Of a DNA stretch of 32,000 nucleotides, positions 3,048 to 32,000 are shown one piece after another; the stretch's first letter is position 1; every line of letters starts with the position of its first letter. The translations under genes and the position numbers were made by a program. Below the pieces are notes generated by a model that had not been told where the DNA came from, did not search any database, and saw only the letters and a list, made by a program, of their open reading frames with translations. Source of the stretch: Nannocystaceae bacterium ST9. Its GTDB lineage: Bacteria > Myxococcota_A > Polyangia > Nannocystales > Nannocystaceae. The stretch is from assembly GCA_048320885.1 (NCBI GenBank), contig JBLWFJ010000001.1, positions 936,110 to 968,109 on the forward strand. Reading direction: 5' to 3'.

Positions 3048-3093
3048 ACCCCCACTCTCCCGGCCGAGAACAGTCCTGCTATCGTCCGACGCC

Positions 3094-3945: not shown

Positions 3946-3972
3946 TCGTCGTCACGCGTTCGAGCATCGACC

Positions 3973-4845: not shown

Positions 4846-4851
4846 GCCCGA

Positions 4852-5160: not shown

Positions 5161-5168
5161 GCCGGAGT

Positions 5169-5336
5169 CTAGCAGGCTGCGGAAGAACACATCACGACCC
5201 AGGGCACGCCCCTGAGGGCCGATCCCTTTGTCGCCGAAAGCTCGCAGTATGCCCGATACAGCTTCGTTTCGGCTTCGCGGCCTCGGCCCTCATTGACGCA
5301 CCCTGGGCCGCGCTGCGTTCTTCCGCAGCCTGCTAG
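5169..5336. repeat. 168-bp element bounded by a perfect 20-bp inverted repeat (MITE-like element or long intercistronic stem-loop)
   Basis: ctagcaggctgcggaagaac (5169..5188) is the exact reverse complement of gttcttccgcagcctgctag (5317..5336). The symmetry continues imperfectly inward (acccaggg / ccctgggc). The right arm overlaps the SRPBCC stop codon (5333..5335). The left arm ends 9 nt from the DUF1272 start. Confidence 0.75.
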
Positions 5337-5845
5337 CAGCGTTGCAACGCAACGAGCTCCTCGTCCAGTTGCCCGAACGTCTCGCCCATCCCTTCGTACG
5401 CTCCGGAGGCCAGCGCCGCATCGCGAACTTCCTTCGACCGATAGCGCTCGTGCAGCACCTGCAGGGTCTTGTCGCCCTTCTCCTCGAGGGTCACCGTCGT
5501 GATGGCCCCATCCTCGCCGCTCTCGTCGTTCGTCCAGACGATTCGCGAGTAGGGCGTCACTTCGATGTACGTGCCGAAGAACGCCATCGTCTTCGTCTCG
5601 TCGACGCCGAACACGAGACGGTAGCCACCTCCAGTACGGATATCCGCCTCGTAGGAGAGCAGGGGCAGCGGCATCGACTTCGGAACCCACCACCGCCTGA
5701 AGAGGCTGGGCGTGGTCCAGGCCTGAAAGACGATGCGCGGCGGGGCGTCGAAGATTCGCGTGACCACGATCTCGCACTCGGCCTTCGGTTCCACCGTCGT
5801 GCGGTGCTTCGTGGGGTTGGGCTCACTGTCTTTTGCTGCGCTCAT
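5333..5845 (-). CDS. SRPBCC superfamily protein (AHSA1/START-like, 170 aa)
   Basis: Track ORF 5333..6367 is trimmed to ATG 5845. ECEIVVTRIFDAPPRIVFQAWTTPSLFRRWWVPK...YRLVFG...FFGTYIEVTPYSRIVWT is typical of the Aha1-like SRPBCC domain. It has a 4-bp ATGA overlap with the upstream ArsR gene. Confidence 0.8.
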   Translation of the reverse strand: MSAAKDSEPNPTKHRTTVEPKAECEIVVTRIFDAPPRIVFQAWTTPSLFRRWWVPKSMPLPLLSYEADIRTGGGYRLVFGVDETKTMAFFGTYIEVTPYSRIVWTNDESGEDGAITTVTLEEKGDKTLQVLHERYRSKEVRDAALASGAYEGMGETFGQLDEELVALQRC

Positions 5846-6189
5846 CGATTGTTCTCTTTCCGTTTCAGTTCCGCGATGACCTCGTCCAGCTCGTCGAAGC
5901 GTGCGCTCCAGAGCTGGCGGTAACCTTCGATCCATTCCGTCTCCGCGGAGAGGCGGCTCGGGCCGAGCTTGCAGGTCCGTACGCGCCCGACCTTCTGCGT
6001 GGCGACGAGCCCGGCTCGCTCCAACACGCCAACGTGCTTCTTCATGCCCGTGAGGGTCATGTGGAATTTCTCGGCCAGCTCCGTGATCGAAGCGTCTGCG
6101 CGGCCGAGCTGGGCTAGAACGCCGCGCCGGGTCGCGTCCGAGAGGGCGGCGAACGAGGCGTCCAGCCGGGCACTCGAATGATGAACCAT
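5842..6189 (-). CDS. ArsR/SmtB family transcriptional regulator (115 aa)
   Basis: This is the C-terminal segment of the artefactual 1059-aa track ORF 5842..9021. From ATG 6189 it reads MVHHSSARLDASFAALSDATRRGVLAQLGRADASITELAEKFHMTLTGMKKHVGVLERAGLV, a winged HTH of ArsR type. The ArsR + SRPBCC pair is a common operon. Confidence 0.8.
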   Translation of the reverse strand: MVHHSSARLDASFAALSDATRRGVLAQLGRADASITELAEKFHMTLTGMKKHVGVLERAGLVATQKVGRVRTCKLGPSRLSAETEWIEGYRQLWSARFDELDEVIAELKRKENNR

Positions 6190-6269
6190 GTGGTTCAGTA
6201 TTAGCCCAGCGACCCGCAGCACGCAAGCCAAATCGAGCACGCGCGAAGTTCGTCCTCGTGACTCGGGCC

Positions 6270-8936: not shown

Positions 8937-9025
8937 GGCGCAGGGTAACGCCGACCCACAGGTGCTCGCAACGCGCTCGCGCCCGCCGGCCCGCGCTGGC
9001 ATCCTGATTCGGCGAGGACACCCCG

Positions 9026-9475
9026 ATGTCGATGTGGCTTCACCTCACCCAGCTCGATCCCCCGCTCTACCAGCACGCGATCACCCACCCCGAACACTTC
9101 GCCACGCTGGTCTACGGCGACGACGAGGGCGGCGAGCTCGGCCCGCTCGACGCCGTCGACGAAGACGAGGACGTGTTCGGCACCGACTATCGAACCATCC
9201 ACATGCTCCTCGAAGAGCAGTACGGCGAGGACTTCGAGGACGACCCCGAGGCCCAGGCCGATCCCTTCTATCGGATCGCGCACGGCGACGGCGAGATCGC
9301 GGCGATCGAGTTCAACTACGGGCCCGGGTTCGGGTTCTCGCCTGCAACGGTCGCTAGCCTGGCCAAGGATCTCGCCGAGTTCGCCGACACCGACGCGGGC
9401 GATCTGAGCGAGCTGGCCAGGTTCTTCGCGAGGGCGGCGAAGCGAGGGCGGCACGTGATCGGCGGCGTCGATTGA
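9026..9475 (+). CDS. DUF1877 (YfbM-like) family protein
   Basis: GAGGA lies about 10 nt upstream of the ATG. The acidic 149-aa protein has a layout and C-terminus (FFARAAKRGRHVIGGVD) that resemble E. coli YfbM as I recall it. Confidence 0.5.
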   Translation: MSMWLHLTQLDPPLYQHAITHPEHFATLVYGDDEGGELGPLDAVDEDEDVFGTDYRTIHMLLEEQYGEDFEDDPEAQADPFYRIAHGDGEIAAIEFNYGPGFGFSPATVASLAKDLAEFADTDAGDLSELARFFARAAKRGRHVIGGVD

Positions 9476-9546
9476 TCACGGAGCGACGTGAGGCGACCCG
9501 TCACGCGTCTTGCGCACGCCGTTCCTGGGCGGTACCATCGAGTGGC

Positions 9547-10464
9547 ATGTCAACTCGTCCTCTATCCGTCACGGCGTGCATCGCAGGCCTGGCTTGTACG
9601 ACGAGTTGCGGATGGAACCCGTGGGGAGCCTCGAGCGACGAAGTGGGCAATGAGCCCGAGACGTCCGGTCGACGCTACTTCATCGCCGAGATTACCGATT
9701 ACTCGAGCCCGCTGGCCAATTGCCCCCAGGCGTCCCTCAACGATGTCACGACGCTCTTTCAAATGACCCTCGAGTCCGATGGCTGGCAAGGAACTCGAAG
9801 GAGCGAAGGGCAGACGATACCCGCCGATTTCCTCGATCCCGCCATCAACGCGGGCGGTCACGATGACATCTTTGCAGATGCCGTGCCCGTCGCTGTGTTC
9901 GCGGGCCATGGCGATCGCGGTCTGCATCTCTGGCCCGTCAACGGTCCGCCTTTCGATCTCTGCCACAACGCGACTGCGGGGTACTATCTCGGCACGGGCT
10001 CCGGAGACGAGAGCACGGTCTTCATCAACGCGGCGAGCTGTGGTGGTGCGTTCGGCGACGACCTCGCCAAGCCTGAGAGCTGCTTCAACCAGACCTGGGG
10101 AAACTCGGAATTTCGGCAATGGCTCGGCTTCATCGATTCGCCAACAATCGGCTCCTACAGCCTCTCCGAATTTTTCCTGTCACTCGCCACGAATCCCAGC
10201 ATGGCGAGCGGTCAACTCGAACCTTGGCTGCTGCTCATGGAATTCCCCGTCGAGGGGGTTCACAACCTCCCCATCGTCTACACCAAGCTCTCCGACGATG
10301 AGCCACTCGACCTCGCCGAAGCCTTGCATTTCGAGCTCAACATGAGGTCGGGCCGCTACATGGACGCGGCCAACCCCGAGCCCAAGCAGGATATAGCGAT
10401 GAGTCCAACCATTGGCGAGATCGACACCACGCTCTTTTGCACGGACCCACCATTCTCTTGCTGA
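9547..10464 (+). CDS. Uncharacterised lipoprotein; possible caspase/gingipain-fold His-Cys dyad
   Basis: Track ORF 9472..10464 is trimmed to ATG 9547. MSTRPLSVTACIAGLACTTSC has a signal peptide and lipobox. VAVFAGHGDRG followed about 45 aa later by TVFINAASCGGAF resembles the strand-His-Gly ... strand-x-Cys arrangement of caspase-hemoglobinase-fold peptidases. That peptidase reading is speculative. Confidence 0.6.
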   Translation: MSTRPLSVTACIAGLACTTSCGWNPWGASSDEVGNEPETSGRRYFIAEITDYSSPLANCPQASLNDVTTLFQMTLESDGWQGTRRSEGQTIPADFLDPAINAGGHDDIFADAVPVAVFAGHGDRGLHLWPVNGPPFDLCHNATAGYYLGTGSGDESTVFINAASCGGAFGDDLAKPESCFNQTWGNSEFRQWLGFIDSPTIGSYSLSEFFLSLATNPSMASGQLEPWLLLMEFPVEGVHNLPIVYTKLSDDEPLDLAEALHFELNMRSGRYMDAANPEPKQDIAMSPTIGEIDTTLFCTDPPFSC

Positions 10465-10480
10465 GTCGAAGTCGAGGACC

Positions 10481-11485
10481 ATGATGGCAATGGCGAAGCA
10501 CTCCACCCACGCCGGCATCGTCGTTTGGCTCTCGCTCGCCGGTTGCGAGACCCCGCTCGGCGAACCTGTCGAGTCGTCCGAGCAAGCCGGCTTACCACGC
10601 AGCACCGCCTGGGGTACTTTTCAGATGACTCGCCCCGACCGGGCCCCCCACGAGGTCCTCCGCCGTGCCCACGCAATCGGCAAGATCGTACTGGGCGACT
10701 CCCAGTTGCCCGATCCAGCTGTTCTCGATGGCGCCGACATCCGGGACTGGGCCGATGTCGCCCTCGCCGAGCCGCATCGGCAAGCCGTGGTTCGCTTCGA
10801 ACTGGGGGGAAGGGACATCCTCGCTACCTATCGGCCGACCGGGGACAGGCTCACCATCGCGGCAATGGACACGCGCGTGCGCCCCGAGCATCCCCAAGGC
10901 GAGATGGATCTGGGGATCGGAGAGGCCCGTGCTCTCGTCGTGGCCCAATCATGCATCGACGGTCTCGAAGCCGCCGGCGTGATCGGTCCCGACGAATTCC
11001 TCCAGGTCCCTAGCGAGACGACTTCGACGCCCTTCGCCTTTCGTGACGAGGCTTGGGTGGAGCGCTACAATTTCGTATTCAACCCCGATCTCGACGGGCT
11101 TCCCCTTCGCAGCGCGGAGGTCATCATCAGCGTGAATGCCTGGTCAGCAGTCTGTCAGCGAATTACCGTCGGTGGTCAAGTCCGCCTGAGCCGGATCGGC
11201 GACGCACCGATCGTCTTGCGCGATGCCCAGGCCGCCACGACTACCGCAAAATCCAAGATCCTCGCCACGACCACCCATGCCACCGAAGTGACGCTGACTG
11301 GCGATTTTGGCTACTACCTGCCCTTCGAGCAGGACTCCGCGCCCGTCTCCCCGCAATTCCTCGTGTACTACGCGACTCACGGCCCTGCTGGCCAAGCGAC
11401 CGCGACCAGCCGCAAGCGCTTTGTCGGCCTCTCTCTGGATGGTCACGATGGCCTCACGGATCTCCTCGGCCCGACCTGGCAATGA
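10481..11485 (+). CDS. Uncharacterised lipoprotein (334 aa)
   Basis: Track ORF 10412..11485 is trimmed to ATG 10481. MMAMAKHSTHAGIVVWLSLAGCETP has an LAGC lipobox. It starts 17 bp after the previous gene. I recognise no family. Confidence 0.6.
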   Translation: MMAMAKHSTHAGIVVWLSLAGCETPLGEPVESSEQAGLPRSTAWGTFQMTRPDRAPHEVLRRAHAIGKIVLGDSQLPDPAVLDGADIRDWADVALAEPHRQAVVRFELGGRDILATYRPTGDRLTIAAMDTRVRPEHPQGEMDLGIGEARALVVAQSCIDGLEAAGVIGPDEFLQVPSETTSTPFAFRDEAWVERYNFVFNPDLDGLPLRSAEVIISVNAWSAVCQRITVGGQVRLSRIGDAPIVLRDAQAATTTAKSKILATTTHATEVTLTGDFGYYLPFEQDSAPVSPQFLVYYATHGPAGQATATSRKRFVGLSLDGHDGLTDLLGPTWQ

Positions 11486-11492
11486 CTTCGCC

Positions 11493-12176
11493 ATGCTGCT
11501 CGGCCTGCTCGCGGCCCTCGTGAGCTGCATGAGCGACGACCCCTCGTCCGACCCGATCGAGGACGAGGGCGGCACCTGCCGGTTCACCGAGCGGACCTAC
11601 TCGGCCAGCGACCCATCTCGGCTGCTCGCTCCCGAGCTCAGGGTCGGCGACTTGCTCGAGCGCGTGGCCACGATCGAGATCCCCTTGCGCTGGACCGGCT
11701 GGGCCGACGACTACCTCGATCCCACACCGCTCGTCGGCGCGACCACGACGCTGCACGTGGCGTTTCGGCCCGAGACGATCACGTTCATCGTGCGCGACTC
11801 GGCGTTCGACGATCCGGTCTGTCACGACTGGATCGAAGTCGAGGGCGAGGCCGAGATCGCGACCGACGACGAGGTCCTGATCGGCGGCACGTGGGCCCGC
11901 GTCCACGTGAACCTCGAAGACGGCAGCGCGACCCTCCAGTCGAGCGCGTCGCTCGACGAGCTCGGCTCGACGCTGATCTGGCCGGCCGACGATCCGCGCC
12001 CGGTGCCGGTCGAGGCCTACCTCGAGTTCGTCGCGCTCAGCCCGATCGGCGACTTTCGCGAGCCCACGGGCCGCGAGGGCGACGTCGAGATGACCCACGT
12101 CTGGTACGTGACCTCCGAGGGCGGCTTCCTCTGGCGGGTGCTCGAGTACTTCTCGATCGCCGAGCTCGGCGCGTGA
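11493..12176 (+). CDS. Uncharacterised lipoprotein (227 aa)
   Basis: Track ORF 11307..12176 is trimmed to ATG 11493. MLLGLLAALVSCMSDD has an LVSC lipobox. It starts 8 bp after the previous gene, so the three lipoprotein genes look co-transcribed. Confidence 0.55.
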   Translation: MLLGLLAALVSCMSDDPSSDPIEDEGGTCRFTERTYSASDPSRLLAPELRVGDLLERVATIEIPLRWTGWADDYLDPTPLVGATTTLHVAFRPETITFIVRDSAFDDPVCHDWIEVEGEAEIATDDEVLIGGTWARVHVNLEDGSATLQSSASLDELGSTLIWPADDPRPVPVEAYLEFVALSPIGDFREPTGREGDVEMTHVWYVTSEGGFLWRVLEYFSIAELGA

Positions 12177-12189
12177 GTCCGGCGAGCGA

Positions 12190-12630
12190 TCAGCAGCCCT
12201 GCTTCTTCAGCGCCGCGACGCTCGTCTTCGCCTTCGCAATGTCCTCGCCATACTTGTCGGGCTCGGCGTACTGCACGAAGTGCTCGTAGAACAAGATCGC
12301 CTTGGCGCAGTCGCCCGCGCGCTCGGCCGTGGTGGCGACCTTGAGCGCGAAGCCGTGCTTGCCGGGCACGAGGTGATAGGCCTGCTCGTAGAGCACGAGC
12401 GCGCCCGCCCAGTCCTCGGCCTTCGCCTTGCCCTCGGCCTCGACGTAGATCGCCTTGGCCTGAGCCTGCCGCTCGTCCTCGGACAGCTCGGGGGCCGGCG
12501 GGGCGACCGGGGCGGGGGCCGGCTCCCGACCTTCGTCGGGGATCCAGGTGTCGTCTTCGGGAGCGACGGGCTCCTCCTTCGGCTTGCAGGCCGAAACGCA
12601 GAGAATCCACGAGGCTGCCATCACCAACAT
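12190..12630 (-). CDS. TPR-like lipoprotein
   Basis: Track ORF 12190..12669 is trimmed to ATG 12630. MLVMAASWILCVSACKPK has a lipobox, followed by a Pro-rich linker. WAGALVLYEQAYHLVP...AGDCAKAILFYEHFVQY is TPR-like. Confidence 0.65.
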   Translation of the reverse strand: MLVMAASWILCVSACKPKEEPVAPEDDTWIPDEGREPAPAPVAPPAPELSEDERQAQAKAIYVEAEGKAKAEDWAGALVLYEQAYHLVPGKHGFALKVATTAERAGDCAKAILFYEHFVQYAEPDKYGEDIAKAKTSVAALKKQGC

Positions 12631-12744
12631 CGAGTTGCGTCGCACGATCCCAGTATCGCACGGCGGCACATTTCGGTTTAGGATCTCCGAGATTCGCTCG
12701 CTCTTCGGCCCTCGATCGCGGCGCGCTGCACCGTCGACCGAGGA

Positions 12745-13053
12745 TCAATCGCCAACGTCCGTGACCACGCCATAAATTGCTCCGCGCCCGACCCAGCCGT
12801 TGATCCCACCGCGGTTGTTGCCGATCAAGAACCGGCGATGATCTCCGTGGCCCGAGATCGCCTTGACCAGGTGCACGAACACGTTGCCCTTGCAGCGACA
12901 GAGCACCGCGTCGTCGACCCCCGGCTCGAGCGTCGGGTCGAGCGTGACCAGTTGCCCGCTCTCGATTCGCCCGCGCATCGACCCGCCGTGCGGCCGACAT
13001 TGCGTGACCGCGCCTGCCTTCAGCGCCTGAATGTGTCGTTCGGCCCAGCCCAT
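12745..13053 (-). CDS. Stand-alone S24/LexA-like serine peptidase-fold protein (102 aa, no DNA-binding domain)
   Basis: Track ORF 12745..13260 is trimmed to ATG 13053. CRPHGGSMRGRIESGQLVTLDP fits the G-x-S-M-x-P-x-I-x-x-G-D/Q nucleophile strand. VFVHLVKAI supplies the Lys. The GNNRGGINGW...IYGVV tail resembles the LexA/UmuD C-terminus. The start lies 1 nt after the stop of the upstream ORF. Confidence 0.5.
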   Translation of the reverse strand: MGWAERHIQALKAGAVTQCRPHGGSMRGRIESGQLVTLDPTLEPGVDDAVLCRCKGNVFVHLVKAISGHGDHRRFLIGNNRGGINGWVGRGAIYGVVTDVGD

Positions 13054-13054
13054 G

Positions 13055-13318
13055 TCAGGCCGCCTCCTCGATCGCATACTCGACCTGTCGGCGCTCGGCG
13101 ACCTCACGGCAGCGCTCGGCGTCGGCGAGGTGCTGCTTGCCGCGCAACCAGGCGCGCAAGATGCAGAGCTCGGTCGCCTCGCGCTTGCGCGCATGCAGCT
13201 CGCGCTGCAATTCGGCCATCGGCGTCGTCCAGGTGGTTCGCAGCGCCGCCTTGATCGCACGAATGCGAATCTCGAGCGCGCGCCGATCGGCCCGCAACTT
13301 CATCATTTCAATCTTCAT
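13055..13318 (-). CDS. Small Arg/Glu-rich helical protein (87 aa), unknown function
   Basis: Track ORF 13055..13453 is trimmed to ATG 13318 (MKIEMMKLRADRRALEIRIRAIKAALR...). It is preceded by an unusual CA/A-rich low-GC leader and is tightly coupled to the S24-like gene. Confidence 0.45.
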   Translation of the reverse strand: MKIEMMKLRADRRALEIRIRAIKAALRTTWTTPMAELQRELHARKREATELCILRAWLRGKQHLADAERCREVAERRQVEYAIEEAA

Positions 13319-13359
13319 TTTTGGTTTTCTGTCTTTCTGTGTGTGTTTGTGTTTTTGCG

Positions 13360-13653
13360 TCACCGCAGCAGCTTCAAGCCGCCCGTGACTGGTTTCACGA
13401 TGCTGCGATCCGCGACCGGCACGATGCCGATCGCCATCAAGGCACCATTCCAAGGTGGATCCGGCTCGCGGATCGCACGATGGGGAATGTCGAGTCGCCG
13501 CAGCGCCTGCTCGAGGGATTCGAGGTGAACCTCGTCCCGAGCCGCGAGCGCCACGGCGACGGTGTGCGGCGGCAAGGCGCCCCGCGAGCTCTCGCCGGCA
13601 GCGTGGATCAGCTGCGCAGCCAGAACCCCGCGTGGGAGGTCTTGCCGGATCAC
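13360..13653 (-). CDS. PTH2-fold (peptidyl-tRNA hydrolase II-like) protein
   Basis: (V)IRQDLPRGVLAAQLIHAAGES aligns by eye to human PTRH2 [21 protein letters not shown]. ...MAIGIVPVADRSIVKPVTGGLKLLR aligns to [22 protein letters not shown]. The D-A-G catalytic stretch is not conserved (REPDPPW). The start is uncertain: GTG 13653 (used) avoids the tRNA-like remnant, while the track start is 13797. Confidence 0.5.
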   Translation of the reverse strand: MIRQDLPRGVLAAQLIHAAGESSRGALPPHTVAVALAARDEVHLESLEQALRRLDIPHRAIREPDPPWNGALMAIGIVPVADRSIVKPVTGGLKLLR

Positions 13654-13676
13654 GCAGTAGTGCGTGAGGGGTATTT

Positions 13677-13750
13677 GCGCCCGACGGGAGTCGAACCCGC
13701 TCGATCCAGGGTGCTTACTCCCGGACCCCATCCACATGGCCAGACGCGCT
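13677..13750 (-). pseudogene. Degenerate tRNA-like element: intact T-arm and 3' acceptor strand, decayed 5' half
   Basis: The minus-strand RNA is GCGCGTCTGGCCATGTGGATGGGGTCCGGGAGTAAGCACCCTGGATCGAGCGGGTTCGACTCCCGTCGGGCGCA (74 nt). It has a canonical T-arm (GCGGG-TTCGACT-CCCGT) followed by a 7-nt acceptor strand and discriminator A. Only 4 of 7 acceptor pairs form (plus one G-U wobble). The D-arm is non-canonical, and the anticodon arm is imperfect (loop GTAAGCA with a closing mismatch). Confidence 0.35.
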
Positions 13751-13943
13751 GGGATGTGCTCGATGCCGTGGTCGACGAACCCCCGGACGGCCGCCAAGGC
13801 CCTCGTCAGGATTCGTTCGCTGTGCCCCTCGCTCCGGGTGGGGCCTCCAAGGCTGTCAAGCTCGCATGTCGATTCACAAACTAGGCGAGGGTCATTGTGC
13901 TGTCAAGCATGCCCGACGTTCGAGTGATAGCTTCGTCGCTCAC

Positions 13944-15146
13944 ATGCTCGCCGCGAATCGAAGTCTGCTCGCCCTCGCGTGGCTCGCCATGGCCGCATGC
14001 TCGCCCACGAACTCGAACGACGACGAGGTCGCGGACGAGACCGCCGGCGAGTCGAGTGGCGACTCGGAGACCGGCGAATCCTCGGGCGAGGTCGGCGAGA
14101 CCAGCGAGTCGAGCGAGGGCGAGACCAACCCTGATACCGGCACCGACACTGCGACCAGCACCGAGACGGGCGATGGCGACGGCGATGGCCACCTGAGCGC
14201 GGAGCACTGCCCGGGCACGCCCGGGCACCCGCCGGGCACGGGCTTGTTCGTCGGCGGTGGCGGGGTCGATGGCCGGGTGACCTCGACGCTCGAAGGCGAG
14301 AGCTGGGCCGACGTGACCACCACCTCCCAGGGACCGCAATTCGAAGGCCACAGCCGCAACCTGATCCGCGGACTCGGCTACGGCGGCGGCGTGTTCGTGG
14401 CCGTCGGCGGGCTCGACAATTGCTATGTCGTGACCTCGTGCGATGGCGTGAATTGGAGGCACGACGTGCTCGCCACCAACGTCGAGGGCGACCTCGATCC
14501 CACGCTCGCGCAATTCCTGAGCGACGTCGCCTACCTCGACGGCGTGTTCGTGGCCGCCGGCGGAGCCGGGGCCCTGCTGCGCTCCGACGATCACGGCCTG
14601 ACCTGGACGCGGGTCGACCCGGACTACTACGCGGGCCACCTGCGCGGCATCGCGGCCGAGGCCGGTCGCTTCGTCGCGACCGGGCACGCGTGGGAGGGCG
14701 ACGTCGGCGTGTCGATCGTGTCGACCGACGGCGGCCTGACCTGGTCGTCGATGTTCGAACATCCGGGCACGCTCGGCCGCGTGGTCGCGGGCAATGGCGT
14801 GTTCGTGGCCACCGGCGCGCAACGCTGCGCGGTCTCGAGCGATGGCGAGACCTGGGACGCGTGCGGCTTCGCGGTCACCGGCGACCTCGCCGGCCCGCTC
14901 TTCGTCGACGGCGAATTCCTCGTGCAGACGCTCGCCGGCGAGTTCTTTCGCTCGCCCGACGGATCCGCGTGGACGGGTCCGACCCAGGGCTGGCTGCCCG
15001 ACACGATCACCCACGCCGGCGAGCGCTTCGTGATGGCCCGTTGGATGCAGCGCGGCTGGGCGAGCGCGATCGAGGGTCCGTGGACGACCCTCGACATGGG
15101 CGGACTGAGCGAAGTGGTCTGGGGCGAGGTGCTCTGGTCGCCCTGA
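13944..15146 (+). CDS. BNR/Asp-box repeat beta-propeller lipoprotein (sialidase/Ycf48-like fold)
   Basis: Track ORF 13866..15146 is trimmed to ATG 13944. MLAANRSLLALAWLAMAAC has a lipobox, followed by an acidic S/E/T/G/D linker. There are six Asp-box-like motifs (S-x-D-x-G-x-T/S-W): LEGESWAD, SCDGVNWRH, SDDHGLTWT, STDGGLTWS, SSDGETWDA, SPDGSAWTG. Confidence 0.75.
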   Translation: MLAANRSLLALAWLAMAACSPTNSNDDEVADETAGESSGDSETGESSGEVGETSESSEGETNPDTGTDTATSTETGDGDGDGHLSAEHCPGTPGHPPGTGLFVGGGGVDGRVTSTLEGESWADVTTTSQGPQFEGHSRNLIRGLGYGGGVFVAVGGLDNCYVVTSCDGVNWRHDVLATNVEGDLDPTLAQFLSDVAYLDGVFVAAGGAGALLRSDDHGLTWTRVDPDYYAGHLRGIAAEAGRFVATGHAWEGDVGVSIVSTDGGLTWSSMFEHPGTLGRVVAGNGVFVATGAQRCAVSSDGETWDACGFAVTGDLAGPLFVDGEFLVQTLAGEFFRSPDGSAWTGPTQGWLPDTITHAGERFVMARWMQRGWASAIEGPWTTLDMGGLSEVVWGEVLWSP

Positions 15147-28181: not shown

Positions 28182-28891
28182 GCTGGGCGCAGGCGGTCGT
28201 CAGTTGGAGCAGCGGCAAGGACAGCGCGTGGGCGCTGCGGGCCGCGCTGGCCGACTGGGGCCGGATCGAGGTCGTCGGCCTGCTGACCACGACCTCGACC
28301 GCGCCCGCGAGCGCCGGCCAGGCGAGCGAGCCGGTCGAGCGCGTCTCGATGCACGGCGTCCGACGATCGCTGCTCGACGCCCAGGCCCGCGCGCTCGGTC
28401 TGACTCAGCACGTCGTCGAGCTACCCTGGCCGTGCAGCAACGCCGAGTATCAGGCCCGCATGGCCGCGCAGGTCGAGGCCCTGGTCGCGCGCGAGATCGA
28501 GGTCGTCGTGTTCGGCGATCTGTTCTTGGCCGACGTTCGGGCCTACCGCGAGCGCATGCTCGCGGGCACGGGGCTGCGGCCGGTGTTTCCGCTGTGGGGC
28601 CGCGACACTCGCGAGCTCGCCCACGAGATGATCGAGCAGGGCCTGATCGCGACCTTGAGCTGTGTCGACCTCGCCAAGCTCCCGCGCGAGTTCGTCGGCC
28701 GCCGCTTCGACGCCGAGCTGCTCGCCGACCTGCCCGAGGGCGTCGATCCCTGCGGCGAGCGAGGCGAGTTTCACACCTTCGTGAGCGGCGGCCCGGGCTT
28801 CGCGTCGACGATCGAGCTCGCCCGGGGCGAGCGAGTCGAGCGCGAGGGCTTCGCCTGGGTCGACCTGCTGCCGAGCTCGATCAATGCGTGA
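28178..28891 (+). CDS. PP-loop adenine-nucleotide alpha-hydrolase of the Dph6/MJ0570 (DUF71, ATP_bind_4) type
   Basis: This is the C-terminal part of track ORF 27212..28891, from ATG 28178 (ATGA overlap with the ACAD stop). VVSWSSGKDSAWAL contains the SGGKDS-like PP-loop. ...VVFGDLFLADVRAYRE...LWGRDTRELAHEMIEQG...DPCGERGEFHTFV is typical of the family. Confidence 0.7.
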   Translation: MSWAQAVVSWSSGKDSAWALRAALADWGRIEVVGLLTTTSTAPASAGQASEPVERVSMHGVRRSLLDAQARALGLTQHVVELPWPCSNAEYQARMAAQVEALVAREIEVVVFGDLFLADVRAYRERMLAGTGLRPVFPLWGRDTRELAHEMIEQGLIATLSCVDLAKLPREFVGRRFDAELLADLPEGVDPCGERGEFHTFVSGGPGFASTIELARGERVEREGFAWVDLLPSSINA

Positions 28892-29363
28892 GCGCGACGA
28901 GCTCGTCGACGTCGCGGACGATCTGCTCGGGCACGAACGCCCCTTCGGGCAGGTGCGTCGCCAGCCAGTTCGCCGCCGCGAGCGGCTCGGAGAACACCTT
29001 CTCGGGGTGGGTCGGGCGCAGGACCACGTTGATGCCGGTGATCACCGCGCGGGCCATCGACGCCAAGAACCCCTCGCCCGCGACCACATAGGCGAACCCG
29101 ACCAGCTTGCCGGCGCGCGCCTTGAGTGACTCGGCCGCCCGCGCTCGAAACTCGTCGTCGGGCAGCTCCTTGACGCTGGTCGGCGAGACCCGGCAGAGCT
29201 GCACGTAGGGCACGCCGACGATCGGATGATCGAGCATGTGCAGCGACGCGTCGAGGTGCTCGCGGGAGACCTTGCCGGTGAACACCTGCACGACCACGCC
29301 CGGCGAGACTCGCATCGCGATCGTGTTGTTCGGGCCGAGAAAGGTACGGTCGGGGGCGGCCAT
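28881..29363 (-). CDS. Hypothetical protein (160 aa; possibly STAS/SpoIIAA-like fold), immediately downstream of the TIR-CHAT gene
   Basis: From ATG 29363 it reads MAAPDRTFLGPNNTIAMRVSPGVVVQVFTGKVSREHLD.... The track start 29381 is a GTG that overlaps the upstream stop (GTGA). The 3' end overlaps the convergent PP-loop gene by 11 bp. I recognise no family with confidence. Confidence 0.5.
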   Translation of the reverse strand: MAAPDRTFLGPNNTIAMRVSPGVVVQVFTGKVSREHLDASLHMLDHPIVGVPYVQLCRVSPTSVKELPDDEFRARAAESLKARAGKLVGFAYVVAGEGFLASMARAVITGINVVLRPTHPEKVFSEPLAAANWLATHLPEGAFVPEQIVRDVDELVALTH

Positions 29364-29377
29364 CCGCCGCGAGTGTG

Positions 29378-30556
29378 TCACCGATGGCCCGCCGGGAACA
29401 GGCGCGCCAGCTCGGCGTCGAGGTAGCCGGTGCCGAGCGTCGCGAGCTGGGCTTGCGCGAAGGCATGCGGGACGTCGGCGTCCTCGCGCGACGCCAGTCG
29501 CTCGTAGAAGGCGGCGCTGAACTGTCGAGCCGCGAAGTCGGAAATCTCGCCTGCGAAGCCGATCGCATGGCCGACGTGGGCGGCGGAGGCCTCGGCCATG
29601 CGTGCAGAGTTGCAGGTCGCGAACACGACCAGCGTGGGCGGTCGGCGGAGCGCGGCGAAGATCCGCGCGACATGCTCGGGCGACACGTGCAGCTCACCAC
29701 CACCATCCTCGAGCAAGATGATGTCGCCGCTCGAATGGCCGTGACCGCCGAAGTGCACGATCGTCGGCTCGTGGTCGTCGAGCTCGTGAACCACTCGCGC
29801 GAGCGTCACCTCGGGCGAGATTCGCGGCTCGTAGCGCTCACGGGCGTGGGCCCGGGCGAGCGCGTCGAGGATCGCTCGCAGCTCGGCGTCGAGTCGGAGC
29901 GGCTCGCCGACGTTGGCCGTGAACAGCAGGATCAGGCGGCGGGCCGCGACGACGTTGCGAGCCGGCGGTGGCGGCGAGAGGGTGATCGCGCCGAGGTTCA
30001 CCGTGCCCGTGACGTTGAGTTGCTGGCCGATCGTCGCGCCGCGATTGTCGACCTGCTGGCGGGAGCGCGGCGCCGGAGGCATCGAACGCATCGGGCCGAT
30101 CGGCGACGCCAAGGTCTTCGGCTGCCCGGTCAGGTGGCGAAAGAGATCGTCGTATCCGGTCAGAAGCCGATGATGCGTGAATGGGCGCAGCGTCAATGGA
30201 ATGTCCTCGTATTCGCCGTCCTCGAAGATCACCGGGATCAGCTTGGTGTTCAGCGAATTCGCGTCGTAAAGGAGCTGTTGAGCGATCAGGCCCTCCCAAG
30301 CCGCGCCCTTGCCCGTCCCCGAGGCTTCGCTGCCTTCGAAGCGCCGCCGGTAGGTCGGCGTGCAGACGAGGATCGTGAAGTCGCTCTCGACGAGCTGCTG
30401 CTGCATCCAGCGTGGCCAGCCTTGCGGGGGCGAGGGCGTGGTCTGATCGAGGCGCGCATCGAGGCCGTCGGCGCGCAGGCGATCGGCGAGGGCGAGGACG
30501 CGCTCGATGTGGGGGGTGGAGTCGTGCGAGTAGGAGATGAAGACGCGCTTGGTCAT
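29378..30556 (-). CDS. SEFIR/TIR-like domain fused to a compact CHAT (caspase-fold) protease-like domain (392 aa)
   Basis: N-terminus: KRVFISYSHDSTPHIERVLALADRLRADGLDARLDQ...WPRWMQQQLVESDFTILVCTPTYRRRF...GKGAAWEGLI...KLIPVIF is the bacterial SEFIR/TIR_2 pattern, with Glu88 at the TIR catalytic-Glu position. C-terminus: LILLFTANVGEPLRLDAELRAI...PTIVHFGGHGHSSGDIILLED...TLVVFATCNSARMAE...HAIGFAGEISDFAARQFSAAFYERL is a CHAT-like core with His272 and Cys315. Confidence 0.75.
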   Translation of the reverse strand: MTKRVFISYSHDSTPHIERVLALADRLRADGLDARLDQTTPSPPQGWPRWMQQQLVESDFTILVCTPTYRRRFEGSEASGTGKGAAWEGLIAQQLLYDANSLNTKLIPVIFEDGEYEDIPLTLRPFTHHRLLTGYDDLFRHLTGQPKTLASPIGPMRSMPPAPRSRQQVDNRGATIGQQLNVTGTVNLGAITLSPPPPARNVVAARRLILLFTANVGEPLRLDAELRAILDALARAHARERYEPRISPEVTLARVVHELDDHEPTIVHFGGHGHSSGDIILLEDGGGELHVSPEHVARIFAALRRPPTLVVFATCNSARMAEASAAHVGHAIGFAGEISDFAARQFSAAFYERLASREDADVPHAFAQAQLATLGTGYLDAELARLFPAGHR

Positions 30557-30672
30557 GAATGCGACCTCGAAGCTACATAGACCAACTCGCTGTCCAGCAC
30601 CAGCAAGCAGTGACTCGCCTCACGCTCTCAGGACCGATCGTTCAGGCCGCGCGGCCCACAGTCCACTCGACC
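30557..30672. promoter_or_regulatory. Probable divergent promoter region between the TIR-CHAT gene and the CHAT-like/STAND gene
   Basis: The track ORF start 30559 lies 2 bp from the opposite ATG (30556), leaving no promoter space. The next in-frame ATGs are 30673 and 30697. Confidence 0.4.
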
Positions 30673-31971
30673 ATGCCCGAACTCCTTCAAATTGGGATGC
30701 AGGTCAATGCCGATCAAGTGTACTTCGGCGGTGAACGACCATCCAAGCCGGAGCTCGATGCCGCGCGAGAAATCCTCGCGCTCCGTTTCAGGGAGGCCCT
30801 CGAGCGCGGCTCGCTTCGCCCCGACGACCCCGAACTCCGGAATCCGCTCAAGCGCCTCTTTGCACACCGTGGGACGTGGCTCGAGCATCCCAGTCACCGG
30901 TTGATCAGCGTACGATCAGCAGTCGAGAGCGATCTCGTCCTCCCTATCGAGTGTCTACGTCCACCAACCGGAACGATGCCGGTCGTTGTCCGCTGTGAAA
31001 TACCCAGGACCGAGACAGTCCGAGAACATCCCTGCCCTCGCCACGACGATGGTCGCATTCTGATGGCATCCTCGAATGCAGGAGGTGCCCTGCCTGACAA
31101 CGAGTTTGTGGAAGCGGCGCATCAAGCTTGCATCGCGGGCTTCCAGACATTCGTCCCCGAACGCGACCACGTCCACTCAGTCTCCAAGTTGAGCCTCGAT
31201 CGGGCCCTCGCTACGTCCTCAAGCGTCTCCGTACTACTGATGGCTTGCCATGTTCGGGACCGTGGTCTGGTTCTTCATGGAAATGAAGAACCAGATGCAA
31301 TCGTCGCGCCACATGAATTCGCATCGATCCTCGCGCCCTTCGCCGCTAATCTACGTCTCGTCGTAATTGTGCCGATCGACGATCTCAATGAGCCTGGTCG
31401 TGATCCGGGACGAATGATCGTCGAGACTGCGCTCGCGCTACACCGCATCGGCTTCGCCTCCGTCGTAGCACCGCGTGTACCTCTTCCCTCGGCCTCGCTC
31501 GGTTCGGTCACGAGTACTCTACTCGGCACCCTGCTCGGTGACGCCCAGACGCCACCAGCATCTCTCGAACAATCGGTTGCTGCCGTGAATGCCCGTCAAC
31601 GCCTACATGACGGTCTTGCATGGCTGGGTCTTCGCCTCTTTGCGCGTGCGAGCGACGGTGACGACACGCGACCTATTGTGATTCGCCCCTATCGCGGGCT
31701 ACTCTCGTTCGAGCGCGAACACGCACGCTTTTATGTCGGCCGAACGCAGGAGGTTCGGGAAATCACTGACCGCCTCGCCAAACTCGAGAGGTTGGGGCTC
31801 CCACGCTTTCTTCTTCTGGTCGGCGCATCAGGGGTCGGCAAGTCCTCACTCGCAAAAGCCGGCGTCGTGCCCGCCATTGTCGGCTCGGAGCCATCTCGAA
31901 TTCCAATAGTCACTCGCCCCAGTGAAAATCTGGAACTCGCACTACAAGGAAGCGAGGGATCAAGCGATTAA
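30673..31971 (+). CDS. Cys-less CHAT-like domain fused to a STAND-type P-loop NTPase, ending at an in-frame stop between Walker A and Walker B
   Basis: CHAT-like layout: RLISVRSAVESDLVLPIECL, RILMASSNAGGALP, VSVLLMACHVRDRGLVLHG...ANLRLVVIVPIDDL...IGFASVVAPRVPL (His position kept, Cys position lost). This is followed by IRPYRGLLSFEREHARFYVGRTQEVREITDRL...RFLLLVGASGVGKSSLAKAGVVPAI, the STAND N-terminal signature plus Walker A (Lys at 31840..31842). GC is lower here (52-58% on sampled lines). The start could be 30559, 30673 or 30697. Confidence 0.7.
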   Translation: MPELLQIGMQVNADQVYFGGERPSKPELDAAREILALRFREALERGSLRPDDPELRNPLKRLFAHRGTWLEHPSHRLISVRSAVESDLVLPIECLRPPTGTMPVVVRCEIPRTETVREHPCPRHDDGRILMASSNAGGALPDNEFVEAAHQACIAGFQTFVPERDHVHSVSKLSLDRALATSSSVSVLLMACHVRDRGLVLHGNEEPDAIVAPHEFASILAPFAANLRLVVIVPIDDLNEPGRDPGRMIVETALALHRIGFASVVAPRVPLPSASLGSVTSTLLGTLLGDAQTPPASLEQSVAAVNARQRLHDGLAWLGLRLFARASDGDDTRPIVIRPYRGLLSFEREHARFYVGRTQEVREITDRLAKLERLGLPRFLLLVGASGVGKSSLAKAGVVPAIVGSEPSRIPIVTRPSENLELALQGSEGSSD

Positions 31972-32000
31972 TTGTGATAGATCAGCTCGAAGAGTCGGTG
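31968..32000 (+). CDS. Continuation of the STAND NTPase in the -1 frame (Walker B), partial at the window edge
   Basis: tta att gtg ata gat cag ctc gaa gag tcg gtg translates to LIVIDQLEESV. This is the hhhhDQxEE Walker B motif of this NTPase class. The frame is open from 31926. Confidence 0.5.

Follow-up and report, generated by a model that had tools for sequence, protein, structure and literature searches.

The window (the whole 32,000-nucleotide stretch of the Nannocystaceae bacterium ST9 genome analysed here) ends in two divergently transcribed genes, A and B, with a further small gene, ORF3, overlapping the end of gene A. The left flank of the window consists of housekeeping genes and is not a defence island. 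The features are as follows, numbered from the first letter of the window.

28881..29381, minus strand: ORF3, a STAS/SpoIIAA-like protein of 160-166 aa (homologues, model fold)
29378..30556, minus strand: gene A, a 392-aa SEFIR-motif-CHAT dual effector, intact ORF
30131..30547, minus strand: SEFIR/TIR-like domain, gene A residues 4-142 (Pfam, PADLOC, profile and Foldseek matches)
30293-30295, minus strand: W87-E88, conserved, in the SEFIR domain of gene A
29987..30052, minus strand: shared signalling motif in the linker of gene A, VDNRGATIGQQLNVTGTVNLGA, residues 169-190 (A-family HMM)
29381..29944, minus strand: compact CHAT/caspase-fold protease module, gene A residues 205-392 (Pfam, profile, Foldseek)
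29741-29743 and 29612-29614, minus strand: His272 and Cys315, the catalytic dyad of gene A
30557..30672, no strand: divergent intergenic region of 116 bp, if gene B starts at ATG 30673
30673..31971, plus strand: gene B, remnant of a motif-pseudoCHAT-nSTAND1 sensor; 432 codons, stop TAA 31969-31971
30691..30735, plus strand: residual second half of the motif at the N-terminus of gene B, IGMQVNADQVYFGGE (motif HMM)
30760..31683, plus strand: CHAT-like domain of gene B, inactivated; helical insert and caspase fold
31684..31929, plus strand: N-terminal 80 residues of the nSTAND1 NTPase of gene B, RPYRGLLSF... (Pfam)
31822-31848, plus strand: Walker A of gene B, GASGVGKSS
31927..32000, plus strand: frameshift zone with in-frame stop 31969-31971 and out-of-frame Walker B (three-frame translation)
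31968-31994, plus strand: Walker B LIVIDQLEE, outside the gene B frame

Gene A and ORF3

ORF calling agrees with the earlier note on the frame of gene A, and Pfam, PADLOC and AlphaFold/Foldseek bear out the SEFIR/TIR-like domain and compact CHAT module proposed there. Residues 4-142 match Pfam TIR_2 (2e-14) and SEFIR (5e-13), and residues 221-374 match CHAT (4.8e-9). The PADLOC bSEFIR model matches at 1e-41, confined to the SEFIR part (model positions 35-197/412). The gene A profile aligns with the bacterial SEFIR structure 5y8e (8e-14; E88 is placed on the Glu of 'GVGTE') and with the SAVED-CHAT structure 8tl0 (1.5e-25; GHG and the catalytic Cys are in register). The AlphaFold model (pLDDT 79) resembles SAVED-CHAT 8tl0, SEFIR structures, caspases and TIRs; in Foldseek, SEFIR and TIR structures are matched, and the best structural match of the CHAT module is 8tl0 (1e-15), with caspases found too. 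The 8tl0 entry is titled 'activated SAVED-CHAT filament'. Pfam detects no ligand-binding domain beyond SEFIR and CHAT in gene A, the CHAT being a bare module of ~190 aa.

Gene A has 20 full-length homologues (identity 44-69%). The three residues singled out earlier, Glu88, His272 and Cys315, are present and conserved: all 21 full-length A-family sequences have His272, and at least 90% of them have W87-E88 and Cys315. Judged by its sequence, gene A is an intact putative dual effector, combining a SEFIR domain that has the conserved Glu with a compact CHAT that has the His/Cys dyad.

The stop of gene A overlaps the GTG start of ORF3 (GTGA), and the two are probably co-transcribed. ORF3 has a GC3 of 0.92 and belongs to a family of roughly 160 aa, with 448 representative homologues at E<=1e-3 (best 64% identity); its model (pLDDT 91) weakly matches the SpoIIAA-like fold (2q3l, E 5.6e-3). 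It had been suggested as a further component of the system. It is a real gene that overlaps gene A, but an HMM of its family finds no copy at any other A locus, a distribution by which ORF3 is not a conserved partner of gene A.

Gene B and its intact relatives

The 302-aa 'hypothetical protein ACNOYE_04070' recorded for Nannocystaceae bacterium ST9 matches gene B at 100% identity. The remainder of gene B lies beyond the window, and our findings on the gene cover 30673..32000. An alternative in-frame ATG is present at 30559. The stretch 30557..30672 showed neither a sigma-70-like promoter nor an intrinsic terminator, a result of little weight for a myxobacterium.

The earlier reading of the first domain as a CHAT that has lost its Cys is upheld. 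In a profile-profile comparison, hhalign pairs the A family with B-type N-domains at a probability of 95.4% (E 1.9e-8), relatives with 30-35% identity to the gene B N-domain match Pfam CHAT at 4e-22, and PADLOC SAVED_CHAT matches gene B itself at 8e-8. When gene B is aligned with both the active clade (LCHG / ACDSGN) and the inactive one, VPIDD falls where the catalytic Cys would be, and Ile235 stands in its place at 31375. The His that the note had found retained is indeed present (MACHV, His193 at 31249), but it carries no functional weight because it is not conserved in the gene B sub-clade, where R, Y, G or E are found elsewhere.

The NTPase is represented by a Pfam nSTAND1 match at residues 339-419 (6.6e-19, model positions 1-79/379). 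Of the STAND signature described earlier, the RPYRGL start and Walker A belong to gene B, but hhhhDQxEE lies in another frame, the one in which KRLIVIDQLEESV is read. In the assembly, the gene B frame shifts at a point between about 31927 and 31967. In tblastn, three relatives (P0125, P0129 and P0122) change frame within 31927..32000, and the spacing from Walker A to Walker B is normal in comparison with relatives. P0125 (1133 aa, start corrected to ATG 7953) and P0129 (1220 aa) are intact relatives, both with a full nSTAND1 and TPR.

GC is 0.59-0.64 across 30000-32000 and about 0.70 elsewhere in the window, which had been taken to indicate horizontal acquisition of gene B and the SEFIR half of gene A. 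This interpretation holds for gene B, whose GC3 is 0.59 vs 0.92 in host genes, but not for gene A, whose GC3 is near the host value, at 0.86 in both halves; the low GC of its SEFIR half stems from codon position 1 (amino-acid composition). Within the pair, gene B is the only compositionally foreign gene, and its codon usage marks it as a recently acquired, decaying gene. Since codon usage differs between the two genes here, A and B were not inherited together as one unit.

A shared motif and its partners

Between the SEFIR and CHAT domains of gene A lies a motif of ~22 aa, rich in G/N/Q/V/I, with consensus hDNRGAxIGQQhxVxGxAxFG; 18 of the 21 A-family members carry it. The gene A model is of low confidence in this region (block-mean pLDDT 42-61), which is usual where a linker is flexible. 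The same motif is found at the extreme N-terminus of all intact inactive-CHAT nSTAND1 relatives (P0129, start-corrected P0125, and proteins of loci L013, L066 and L097), in which it is followed by the helical insert, dead CHAT, nSTAND1 and TPR or WD40. At L097 the bearer is the second STAND of the locus.

As a non-circular test, an HMM was built from A-family sequences alone and searched against 6689 ORFs. The matches are a motif-EAD1 ORF at L096 (1.5e-8), an L097 STAND (7e-7), a NACHT at L093 (7.5e-5), the L013 sensor (1.6e-3) and P0129 (5.9e-3); the next match, where noise sets in, has E 3.4. The matched regions are STAND sensor N-termini or domain junctions, together with the EAD1 adaptor. 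The motif of the L066 sensor is not significant by itself with this HMM (E 0.43).

Gene B retains only the sensor-specific half of the motif. It scores 16.9 bits with the motif HMM, where three intact relatives reach 31-36 bits. The hDNRGA half that effectors and sensors have in common is not there, and DNRGA is absent upstream of the remnant in every frame; homology of P0125 and P0129 to gene B DNA starts at 30691-30697. As read from the DNA, gene B is disabled by two lesions, the loss of the shared motif half and a frameshift in the NTPase, after Walker A and ahead of Walker B. The local A/B pair is probably non-functional because of them. If the frameshift were an assembly error, gene B would be less decayed than stated here, with the loss of the shared half remaining.

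The motif behaves as a module. It is C-terminal to a SEFIR domain in P0028, lies between SEFIR and TIR_2 in P0023, precedes EAD1 in the L096 ORF and stands just ahead of the NTPase in the L093 NACHT. In P0122 a TIR domain is fused exactly at the motif's expected place, an 'all-in-one' form. Cyanobacterial compact-CHAT proteins, 31-39% identical to the gene A CHAT, precede nSTAND1-WD40 or nSTAND1-FGE genes, and each such pair has its own locus-specific motif in common (e.g. IDKRSGGIYFGDSATVQGDVVG vs IDNRSGGIFFGDQAVVQGDVVG); these nSTAND1 partners bear only a motif, without CHAT.

B-type proteins (inactive CHAT with nSTAND1 and TPR or WD40) are very rare in databases. One adjoins an A homologue in three of nine well-flanked A contexts, including the window: in tandem, 176 bp apart, at L013; convergent, about 44 bp apart, at L066; and divergent here. 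L013 and L066 are independent metagenomic loci, so that three loci show three orientations. The other six contexts (L001, L002, L092, L093, L094 and L095) have no B-type neighbour, the neighbour being the NACHT at L093 and a SEFIR-STAND-TPR protein at L095; the closest A homologues (64-69% identity), two in number, are among these six. The adjacency that the note proposed to check is seen at L013 and L066 but not in these six contexts, closest homologues included. The comparisons support membership of A and B in a recurring partnership between an effector and an NLR-like STAND.

Coupling of effector and sensor

The relatives suggest that the 22-residue motif, and not the common protease fold, links A and B. 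On balance, we think it likely that A and B are the intact and the decayed member of a two-gene NLR-like conflict system whose parts this short motif couples in trans. The earlier note had proposed homotypic recruitment, in which the sensor's dead CHAT would pair with the live CHAT of the effector to recruit and activate it. Such pairing would be comparable to that of cFLIP with caspase-8. The fold does occur on both proteins, as the hhalign result indicates, and the inactive CHAT is a maintained feature rather than simple decay, since it is conserved through the whole sub-clade, full-length members included. Kaur et al. remark that caspase-like domains of two components tend toward co-occurrence and that inactive peptidases may serve as binding modules (PMC7159879). 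However, the two CHATs are of different subfamilies, with HMMs of either missing the other at E<1e-4; P0122 retains its dead CHAT despite a TIR effector fused in cis; and the motif joins partners of which one or both have no CHAT (the L093 NACHT, P0028, P0023, L096 and the cyanobacterial nSTAND1 proteins). The comparative data favour the motif, and we consider CHAT-CHAT recruitment quite improbable.

The two genes could instead be unrelated neighbours, with A a stand-alone bSEFIR-like abortive-infection protein and B a horizontally acquired, decaying NLR-like gene. Here bSEFIR, a validated single-gene system (Millman et al. 2022, 10.1101/2022.05.11.491447), provides a precedent together with the PADLOC match of gene A; the unequal GC3 values, the broken state of gene B, the IS elements flanking P0125, the housekeeping left flank and the lack of a STAND near the closest A homologues all fit. 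We nevertheless regard this as unlikely: rare B-type proteins adjoin A homologues in three independent loci and orientations, the motif shared by A and sensors scores far above background, a TIR-fused relative (P0122) exists, and the bSEFIR model covers the SEFIR domain only. Very improbable, in our view, is that A acts as a type IV Thoeris in cis, a SEFIR/TIR nucleotide activating its own CHAT, or that the motif is a CHAT cleavage or pseudosubstrate site (cut between R and G of DNRG). A precedent is type IV Thoeris, whose caspase-like protease is switched on by N7-cADPR made by the TIR (10.1101/2024.10.24.620036), and the motif lies just N-terminal to the CHAT in A and near the CHAT-like start in B. 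Against this, the gene A CHAT lacks an extra ligand-binding domain by Pfam, Thoeris models score negligibly (ThsB1 0.013; ThcB4 16 bits vs a 220-bit cut-off), many members have Q, H, D, S or G in place of the Arg in DNRG, with conservation extending over 20 beta-prone residues, and the motif is found also without any CHAT.

By analogy, motif coupling would work in the way of EAD coupling and of NLR-associated signalling motifs such as BASS and HET-s/NWD2. Amyloid motif pairs (HET-s/NWD2; BASS1-11, including Bab/Agp) resemble the present case in having a G/N/Q/V/I-rich motif of ~20-25 aa that an effector has in common with a neighbouring STAND/NLR with TPR/WD40, where it stands at the very N-terminus, in their 'all-in-one' relatives with an effector domain in the motif's place, and in their occurrence in multicellular bacteria; for one of them, the antiphage system Bab/Agp, experiments have demonstrated amyloid signalling (10.1101/2024.11.07.622273). 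BASS is also known to include TIR2 and CHAT effectors. Unlike here, the sensors in the BASS screen were NACHT/NB-ARC proteins and the effectors Bell proteins, from actinobacteria and cyanobacteria. The sensor NTPase here is nSTAND1 (NACHT in one case), the B-type sensor has an extra dead CHAT, the motif sequence was matched to no BASS family, and the host is a member of the Myxococcota, where Bell domains are reported absent. The gene A motif is internal, between two effector domains, unlike the C-terminal motif of classical BASS/HET-s effectors; this was counted against motif coupling, as were the six well-flanked A contexts without a B-type neighbour.

EAD-coupled NTPase conflict systems (Kaur, Burroughs, Iyer, Aravind 2020/2021; EAD principle in PMC8195603) likewise occur in multicellular bacteria and place a small module on the sensor N-terminus and on a separate effector, which broadens the effector range open to the sensor. 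They share TIR, caspase, PNP, FGE-sulfatase, nSTAND and inactive enzyme domains with the present systems, and EAD1 itself is found in the L096 adaptor and on many SEFIR homologues. EADs, however, are helical Death-like domains of ~90 aa, whereas the module here is beta-prone and spans ~22 aa. Neither SEFIR nor nSTAND1 occurs as a word in the main texts of PMC7159879 and PMC8195603. As the earlier note had it, the pair falls outside the characterised systems in that no PADLOC system model covers it, but coupling of an effector and a STAND sensor in trans via a short shared module, with TIR/CHAT effectors, has been described computationally (PMC7159879, PMC8195603, 10.1101/2020.01.06.895854).

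Among single effectors, bSEFIR shares the N-terminal SEFIR, and its documented activity is NAD+ depletion; gene A has the motif and CHAT in place of the bSEFIR C-terminal region, and A-family members are repeatedly tied to STAND sensors. Type III CRISPR-associated SAVED-CHAT has the CHAT nearest to that of gene A in sequence and structure, but no SAVED or other nucleotide-sensing domain is detected in gene A. Type IV Thoeris also joins TIR signalling and caspase-like proteolysis (ThsE) in one immune pathway, whereas gene A has both domains on one chain. Unlike in either system, the proposed trigger is a STAND NTPase and not a cyclic-nucleotide synthase or ThsB.

In intact systems with motif coupling, the repeat domain would sense an invader and the nSTAND1 NTPase would oligomerise. 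The sensor N-terminal motifs clustered in this way would recruit their counterpart in the effector or serve as its template. Polymerised effectors would gather SEFIR domains for NAD+ hydrolysis (SEFIR depletes NAD+; 10.1101/2024.02.11.579819) and CHAT domains for proximity-activated proteolysis, leading to abortive infection or cell death. The sensor's dead CHAT may add a cFLIP-like docking surface without being the primary coupler. If gene A still works, its trigger would have to be another motif-bearing STAND elsewhere in the genome.

Domains of gene A and gene B

Features of the locus, in window coordinates:
28881-29381, minus strand: ORF3, a real gene with GC3 0.92
29378..30556, minus strand: gene A, an ORF of 392 aa
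29987-30052, minus strand: motif of gene A (aa 169-190, in the SEFIR-CHAT linker), VDNRGATIGQQLNVTGTVNLGA
30691-30735, plus strand: residual motif half of gene B, IGMQVNADQVYFGGE (sensor-specific half only, 16.9 bits)
31822-31848, plus strand: Walker A of gene B, GASGVGKSS, in frame
31969-31971, plus strand: in-frame stop TAA of gene B, the end of the ORF

Gene A was described in the earlier note as a SEFIR/TIR-like domain joined to a compact CHAT module with Glu88, His272 and Cys315, a description that Pfam, alignment, and profile and structure matches all confirm. Residues 4-142 match both SEFIR (Pfam PF08357; 50 bits, 5e-13, cut-off 23) and TIR_2 (PF13676; 54.6 bits, 2e-14, cut-off 28), and residues 221-374 match CHAT (PF12770; 36.5 bits, 4.8e-9, cut-off 24). 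Gene A was aligned with 20 full-length homologues of 44-69% identity; all of them share His272, and conservation reaches at least 90% at W87-E88 and at Cys315. The CHAT domain combines a profile match with a His/Cys dyad; the family profile matches 8tl0, an activated SAVED-CHAT filament, at 1.5e-25, and there both dyad residues are in register with GHG and the catalytic Cys. The same profile matches a bacterial SEFIR (5y8e) at 8e-14, with E88, the candidate catalytic residue, facing the Glu of 'GVGTE'; the SEFIR of Act1 has no Glu at this position in the profile alignment. The AlphaFold model of gene A (mean pLDDT 79) resembles 8tl0 in Foldseek (1e-15), and also the SEFIR of the IL-17R/Act1 complex, Bacillus SEFIR 5y8e/f, caspases and TIR domains. 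The PADLOC bSEFIR match (1e-41) is confined to model positions 35-197 of 412 and so falls short of full-length similarity, the C-terminal half of gene A being CHAT.

The N-domain of gene B, the sensor remnant, has no direct Pfam match. Pfam CHAT is matched at 4e-22 by its relatives at 30-35% N-domain identity, and hhalign, comparing profiles of gene B-type N-domains and of the CHAT of gene A, gives 95.4% probability; both back the fold relationship proposed earlier. The relatives form two clades, one active (LCHG, ACDSGN) and one inactive, the latter comprising gene B, P0122, P0125, P0129, the second STAND of L097 and the sensors of L013 and L066. In the alignment, members of the inactive clade have another residue instead of the Cys and a deletion of four residues past the His position, which itself is occupied by H, R, Y, G or E. 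Gene B itself has VPIDD in place of the Cys together with the four-residue deletion, and thus no His/Cys dyad; of the earlier statement that it keeps the His and has lost the Cys, the loss holds, and the His position varies across the sub-clade. The inactive-CHAT clade is rare, with four members (P0121, P0122, P0125 and P0129) among the matches listed by the profile search. The dead CHAT is a feature that has been maintained, since it occurs in full-length members: nSTAND1 is complete and accompanied by TPR in P0125 (1133 aa) and P0129 (1220 aa), and WD40 is present in the sensor of L013.

Residues 339-419 of gene B match nSTAND1 (Pfam PF20703; 69.2 bits, 6.6e-19, cut-off 27.1) over model positions 1-79 of 379. 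The start of the STAND signature and its Walker A are therefore present as first described, but the Walker B quoted in the earlier note (KRLIVIDQLEESV) is read in another frame. Searches by tblastn with three relatives place a frame switch at about 31927-31967, just ahead of the TAA that truncates the gene, and the ORF contains no contiguous nSTAND1 with an in-frame Walker B. The note's overall observation thus stands for domains and residues and fails for the reading frame and completeness of gene B. The gene is seen to the window end, and its remainder, including the C-terminal part, lies beyond base 32000. In the NCBI annotation it is represented by a 302-aa fragment only, 'hypothetical protein ACNOYE_04070' of Nannocystaceae bacterium ST9, which matches part of gene B at 100% identity.

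Lower GC had been taken as a sign of horizontal acquisition of both gene B and the SEFIR half of gene A. GC3 is 0.59 in gene B, against 0.86 in gene A and 0.92 in neighbouring host genes, so gene B is compositionally foreign and gene A is not. Acquisition of the SEFIR half is rejected, since GC3 is 0.86 in both halves and the lower GC of that half comes from codon position 1. Gene A is intact, with codon usage near that of the host. Homology of gene B to its relatives begins at 30691-30697, and the hDNRGA half of the motif described below was found in no frame at its N-terminal region. With half a motif, a frameshift and foreign codon usage, gene B has the appearance of an acquired gene in decay; as a sensor it is degenerate, and for annotation purposes it is a probable pseudogene. 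Gene A, if still in use, is probably triggered in trans.

Several further observations concern the two gene lineages. P0125 has a GC3 of 0.59 in a host of 0.92, with IS110 and IS3 transposase genes on its flanks, and the L013 sensor has 0.54 versus 0.75 for its effector; other inactive-CHAT sensor genes also look mobile. Truncation or degeneration inside the NTPase domain also seems to affect two other relatives of gene B: P0122 (L011:2848-5037) ends after nSTAND1 model position 222, in low-complexity sequence, and P0123 ends directly past Walker B, which may reflect frequent decay in the sensor lineage or else poor assemblies. A paralogue of gene A, P0002 (63% identity), lies elsewhere in the same genome and has the motif. 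This paralogue and the gene B fragment are present in the protein and contig collections, where no exact entry exists for the 392-aa product of gene A; the deposited ST9 annotation may use another start for gene A or mark it differently. A scan of the contig collection gave distant cyanobacterial CHAT matches only. A plasmid search found no record spanning at least 80% of gene A or of P0129, the matches being separate SEFIR, compact-CHAT or nSTAND1 domains, mostly from Nostoc, Streptomyces and similar genera. DNA polymerase I is encoded at 6273-9044 (minus strand) in the window, 20 kb from gene A, and at L001:15393-18059 and L002:13761-16463, 2.6-4.2 kb from gene A homologues; this loose synteny suggests a long residence of gene A in Nannocystaceae chromosomes.

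A motif shared by effectors and sensors

The linker between SEFIR and CHAT in gene A contains a motif of about 22 residues, overlooked in the earlier note, with the consensus hDNRGAxIGQQhxVxGxAxFG, present in 18 of the 21 A-family members. In the AlphaFold model this region is predicted with low confidence, at block-mean pLDDT values of 42-61, and has two short strands. The motif recurs at the very N-terminus of the inactive-CHAT sensors P0129, L097 sensor 2, L013, L066 and, once its start is corrected, P0125; the active-CHAT clade of sensors is without it. The annotated start of P0125 (8001) cuts its own motif, and the ATG at 7953 is a better fit. An HMM was built from A-family sequences only, because circularity was to be avoided, and run on 6689 ORFs.

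Motif sequences of sensors, and E values with the HMM built from A-family sequences only
L096 small ORF adjoining P0125: E 1.5e-8
L097 STAND: E 7e-7
L097 sensor 2, N-terminal: MSSGIHVDNRGATIGQQVVAGRVFFGGEEPS
L093 NACHT protein: E 7.5e-5
L013 sensor: ...LDNRGASIGMQVNSESIYFGGEVPS; E 1.6e-3
P0129, N-terminal: MSTVIIDNRDAAIGQQVVGEQVFFGGERPS; E 5.9e-3
L066 sensor: ...VDSRGATIGSMVIAECVVFGGKEP; E 0.43
P0125, start at the upstream ATG: MSNSNVTVDNSGASISMQIV...
Noise: E 3.4 and above

The contexts of the motif vary. According to Pfam, it precedes EAD1 in the L096 ORF and lies directly ahead of the NACHT domain in the L093 protein, P0028 consists of SEFIR and a C-terminal motif, and P0023 is SEFIR-motif-TIR_2. 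In P0122, a relative of gene B, TIR_2 is fused at the exact place of the motif, an 'all-in-one' form. An effector and the N-terminus of the adjoining STAND/NLR protein both carry the same short motif in the L013 pair, the L093 NACHT pair, the L096 adaptor/sensor pair and the cyanobacterial pairs; in the window pair, gene B retains only the second, non-shared half.

The L096 ORF (7378-7851, minus strand), absent from the gene calls and divergent from P0125 (L096:7953-11402), has an A-type motif, VDNRGATIGSQIMVGGDAVLGP, followed by EAD1 (Pfam 2.8e-6), and its product may act as an adaptor between motif-type sensors and EAD1-tagged effectors.

In cyanobacteria, a compact-CHAT gene (31-39% identical to the CHAT of gene A) is followed by an nSTAND1-WD40 or nSTAND1-FGE-sulfatase gene, and each pair has a motif of its own, e.g. 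IDKRSGGIYFGDSATVQGDVVG versus IDNRSGGIFFGDQAVVQGDVVG and GGMQAVQGNYNQQ versus GGIQAIQGERNIQ. These pairs are located in L003, L005, L006 and L007 (about 10000-14700; L007 563-5086). Their G/N/Q-rich motif, at the tail of the CHAT protein and the N-terminus of the sensor, differs between loci and matches within a locus.

Whether the pairing recurs was addressed by scanning HMMs of the gene A and gene B domains over 97 loci, with a census of about a dozen A contexts. A B-type neighbour, i.e. an inactive-CHAT nSTAND1 sensor, occurs in three of nine well-flanked A contexts, in three orientations: divergent in the window; 176 bp downstream on the same strand in L013, where the sensor comprises the motif, a dead CHAT, nSTAND1 (375-750) and WD40; and convergent, about 44 bp apart, in L066 (nSTAND1 at 395-771, and TPR). 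Other STANDs accompany gene A homologues at two contexts, a NACHT in L093 and a SEFIR-STAND-TPR with SIR2-CHAT in L095. Next to the two closest homologues of gene A (69% and 64% identity) there is no STAND gene; each is followed by a PTH2-like gene.

Three of these loci have further features. In L013 (3265-6336, plus strand), the A homologue is part of a single stop-free ORF of 1023 aa, with a CAP12/Pycsar-type TIR-like segment (aa 170-239) and a PNP_UDP_1 phosphorylase (315-566) upstream of SEFIR-motif-CHAT, apparently a three- or four-effector fusion ahead of the motif-pseudoCHAT-nSTAND1-WD40 sensor. The L095 cluster (2400-9122) contains SIR2_2-CHAT (469 aa), SEFIR-STAND(DUF7779)-TPR (1355 aa) and the A homologue P0021, whose SEFIR is without the SYSHDS and WE signatures, whose motif is absent and whose CHAT retains His/Cys; here SEFIR may be the adaptor and CHAT the effector. 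In L093 (6931-17242), SEFIR alone (293 aa), SEFIR-motif-CHAT and SEFIR-Metallophos (727 aa) stand in tandem, near an FGE-sulfatase fragment and an opposite-strand Metallophos-motif-NACHT-FGE-sulfatase sensor. Domain sharing between effector and sensor in L093 is wider than the motif.

Proposed coupling of sensor and effector

The partnership between A and B types proposed in the earlier note holds as a recurrent effector/STAND adjacency and not in the details of coupling through the CHAT fold, an intact local sensor or participation of ORF3. CHAT-CHAT homotypic contact had been suggested on the grounds that both proteins have the fold, but several motif-linked partners are without CHAT, so such pairing cannot be the general coupler; it may serve as an accessory contact. 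Nor does the motif-plus-CHAT of gene A appear to be a collinear duplicate of the N-terminal module of gene B: hhalign aligns the CHAT cores only (A 204-354 to B-type 134-309), and the sensors have a helical insert of about 100 aa between motif and CHAT. The earlier interpretation is partly supported: the effector/STAND partnership is real, but it is probably coupled via the shared motif and not via the CHAT fold.

Motif sharing, adjacency and TIR fusion are features of the loci themselves; for what links them, the mechanism we infer as most likely would begin with oligomerisation of the sensor and clustering of its N-terminal motifs, which would then recruit or template the motif of the effector, so that induced proximity would activate SEFIR and CHAT. 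Oligomerisation is generally needed by TIR NADases. The nearest relative of the gene A CHAT is a protease whose structure was deposited as an activated filament (8tl0), and in the bSEFIR system NAD+ is depleted by SEFIR (10.1101/2024.02.11.579819).

A more elaborate joint reading goes beyond motif coupling, and we regard it as rather unlikely in its entirety. Here hDNRGAxIGQQ... would be an undescribed, prion-like (beta-arch or amyloid) family of signalling motifs in Myxococcota, through which activated nSTAND1 or NACHT sensors would template effector polymerisation. Placed between the SEFIR NADase and the CHAT protease, the motif would switch on both death activities together, and the conserved dead CHAT of the sensor would be a platform or decoy in the manner of cFLIP. 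The effector gene would be the resident one, with sensor genes exchanged beside it through horizontal transfer; their low GC3 and IS flanks would follow from this.

By analogy, the motif loci appear to share the features by which NLR-associated signalling-motif systems are defined: effector and sensor N-terminus bear a short motif rich in G/N/Q/V/I, the genes are adjacent, all-in-one fusions occur as alternatives, and the systems are confined to multicellular bacteria. Named examples are the fungal HET-s/NWD2 and the bacterial BASS, whose motif families were established from Bell effectors and NACHT/NB-ARC sensors and for which TIR2 and CHAT effectors have already been noted; BASS1 and BASS3 have been put through a Podospora prion-propagation assay. 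The Bab/Agp system, whose phage defence has been demonstrated experimentally, is the one on which, within the literature consulted, experimental evidence for an amyloid-type relay from sensor to death effector in bacteria rests (10.1101/2024.11.07.622273). The effector-associated domain (EAD) principle of Kaur et al. (PMC8195603) is a further parallel. In BASS-like effectors the motif is at the C-terminal end, whereas in gene A it is internal (aa 169-190 of 392) and only in P0028 C-terminal. Type IV Thoeris has a separate ThsB TIR gene and a ThsE caspase-like effector, whereas gene A has both domains in one protein.

The pair had been placed outside Avs, bNACHT and Thoeris, in agreement with the model searches. 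Gene B has no PADLOC match to Avs or bNACHT models, its matches there being SAVED_CHAT (8e-8) and weak mad3 and mad8 P-loop matches; Thoeris models match gene A far too weakly for assignment (ThsB1 at E 0.013 in PADLOC; ThcB4 at 16 bits versus a 220-bit cut-off in NCBIfam). The literature search found no paper on a SEFIR-CHAT/nSTAND1 pair, and two Aravind-lab papers (PMC7159879, PMC8195603) mention neither SEFIR nor nSTAND1 in their main text. The system belongs with signalling-motif or EAD-coupled NLR-like systems and is not categorically new.

If the motif works as in Bab/Agp and BASS, the principle would reach nSTAND1 sensors and Myxococcota, as well as enzymatic effectors with an NADase and a caspase-like protease in one chain. 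A role could then be assigned to many 'SEFIR/TIR-X' proteins of multicellular bacteria, and a 22-residue tag would identify sensor-effector partners even where their domains are not homologous and their genes not strictly adjacent. A compact, testable pair would be available in the intact genes of L013 or L066, or in gene A together with a repaired gene B.

ORF3 and the surrounding genes

ORF3 had been put forward as a possible further component of the system. Its start overlaps the stop of gene A (GTGA), as first described, making co-transcription likely; an ATG follows 15 nt downstream. The protein belongs to an unnamed family of about 160 aa with 448 representative homologues/clusters at E<=1e-3 (best 64% identity), and its model (pLDDT 91) has a weak likeness to STAS/SpoIIAA/DUF3478 proteins. 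It has no PADLOC or NCBIfam match and marginal Pfam matches only. A third conserved component is not what the comparison indicates: an HMM of the ORF3 family found no member at any other A locus among those scanned, and the PTH2-like genes that follow the closest A homologues show no homology to ORF3.

A defence-island context was likewise rejected, since the genes on the left side of the window are of housekeeping or metabolic kinds (PolA, thiolase, TPP enzyme, KAS III, pirin, enoyl-CoA hydratase, acyl-CoA dehydrogenase, Dph6-like) and there are no tRNA genes in the surroundings. A promoter/terminator scan of 28700-30900 found nothing and was uninformative. A second GC trough (0.605-0.63) lies at 9500-11500, around an ORF of 360 aa (10403-11482, plus strand) with reduced GC3 (0.74) and no Pfam match; a 492-aa ORF at 13668-15143 (plus strand) has no Pfam match either, and both may be further foreign or lineage-specific genes.
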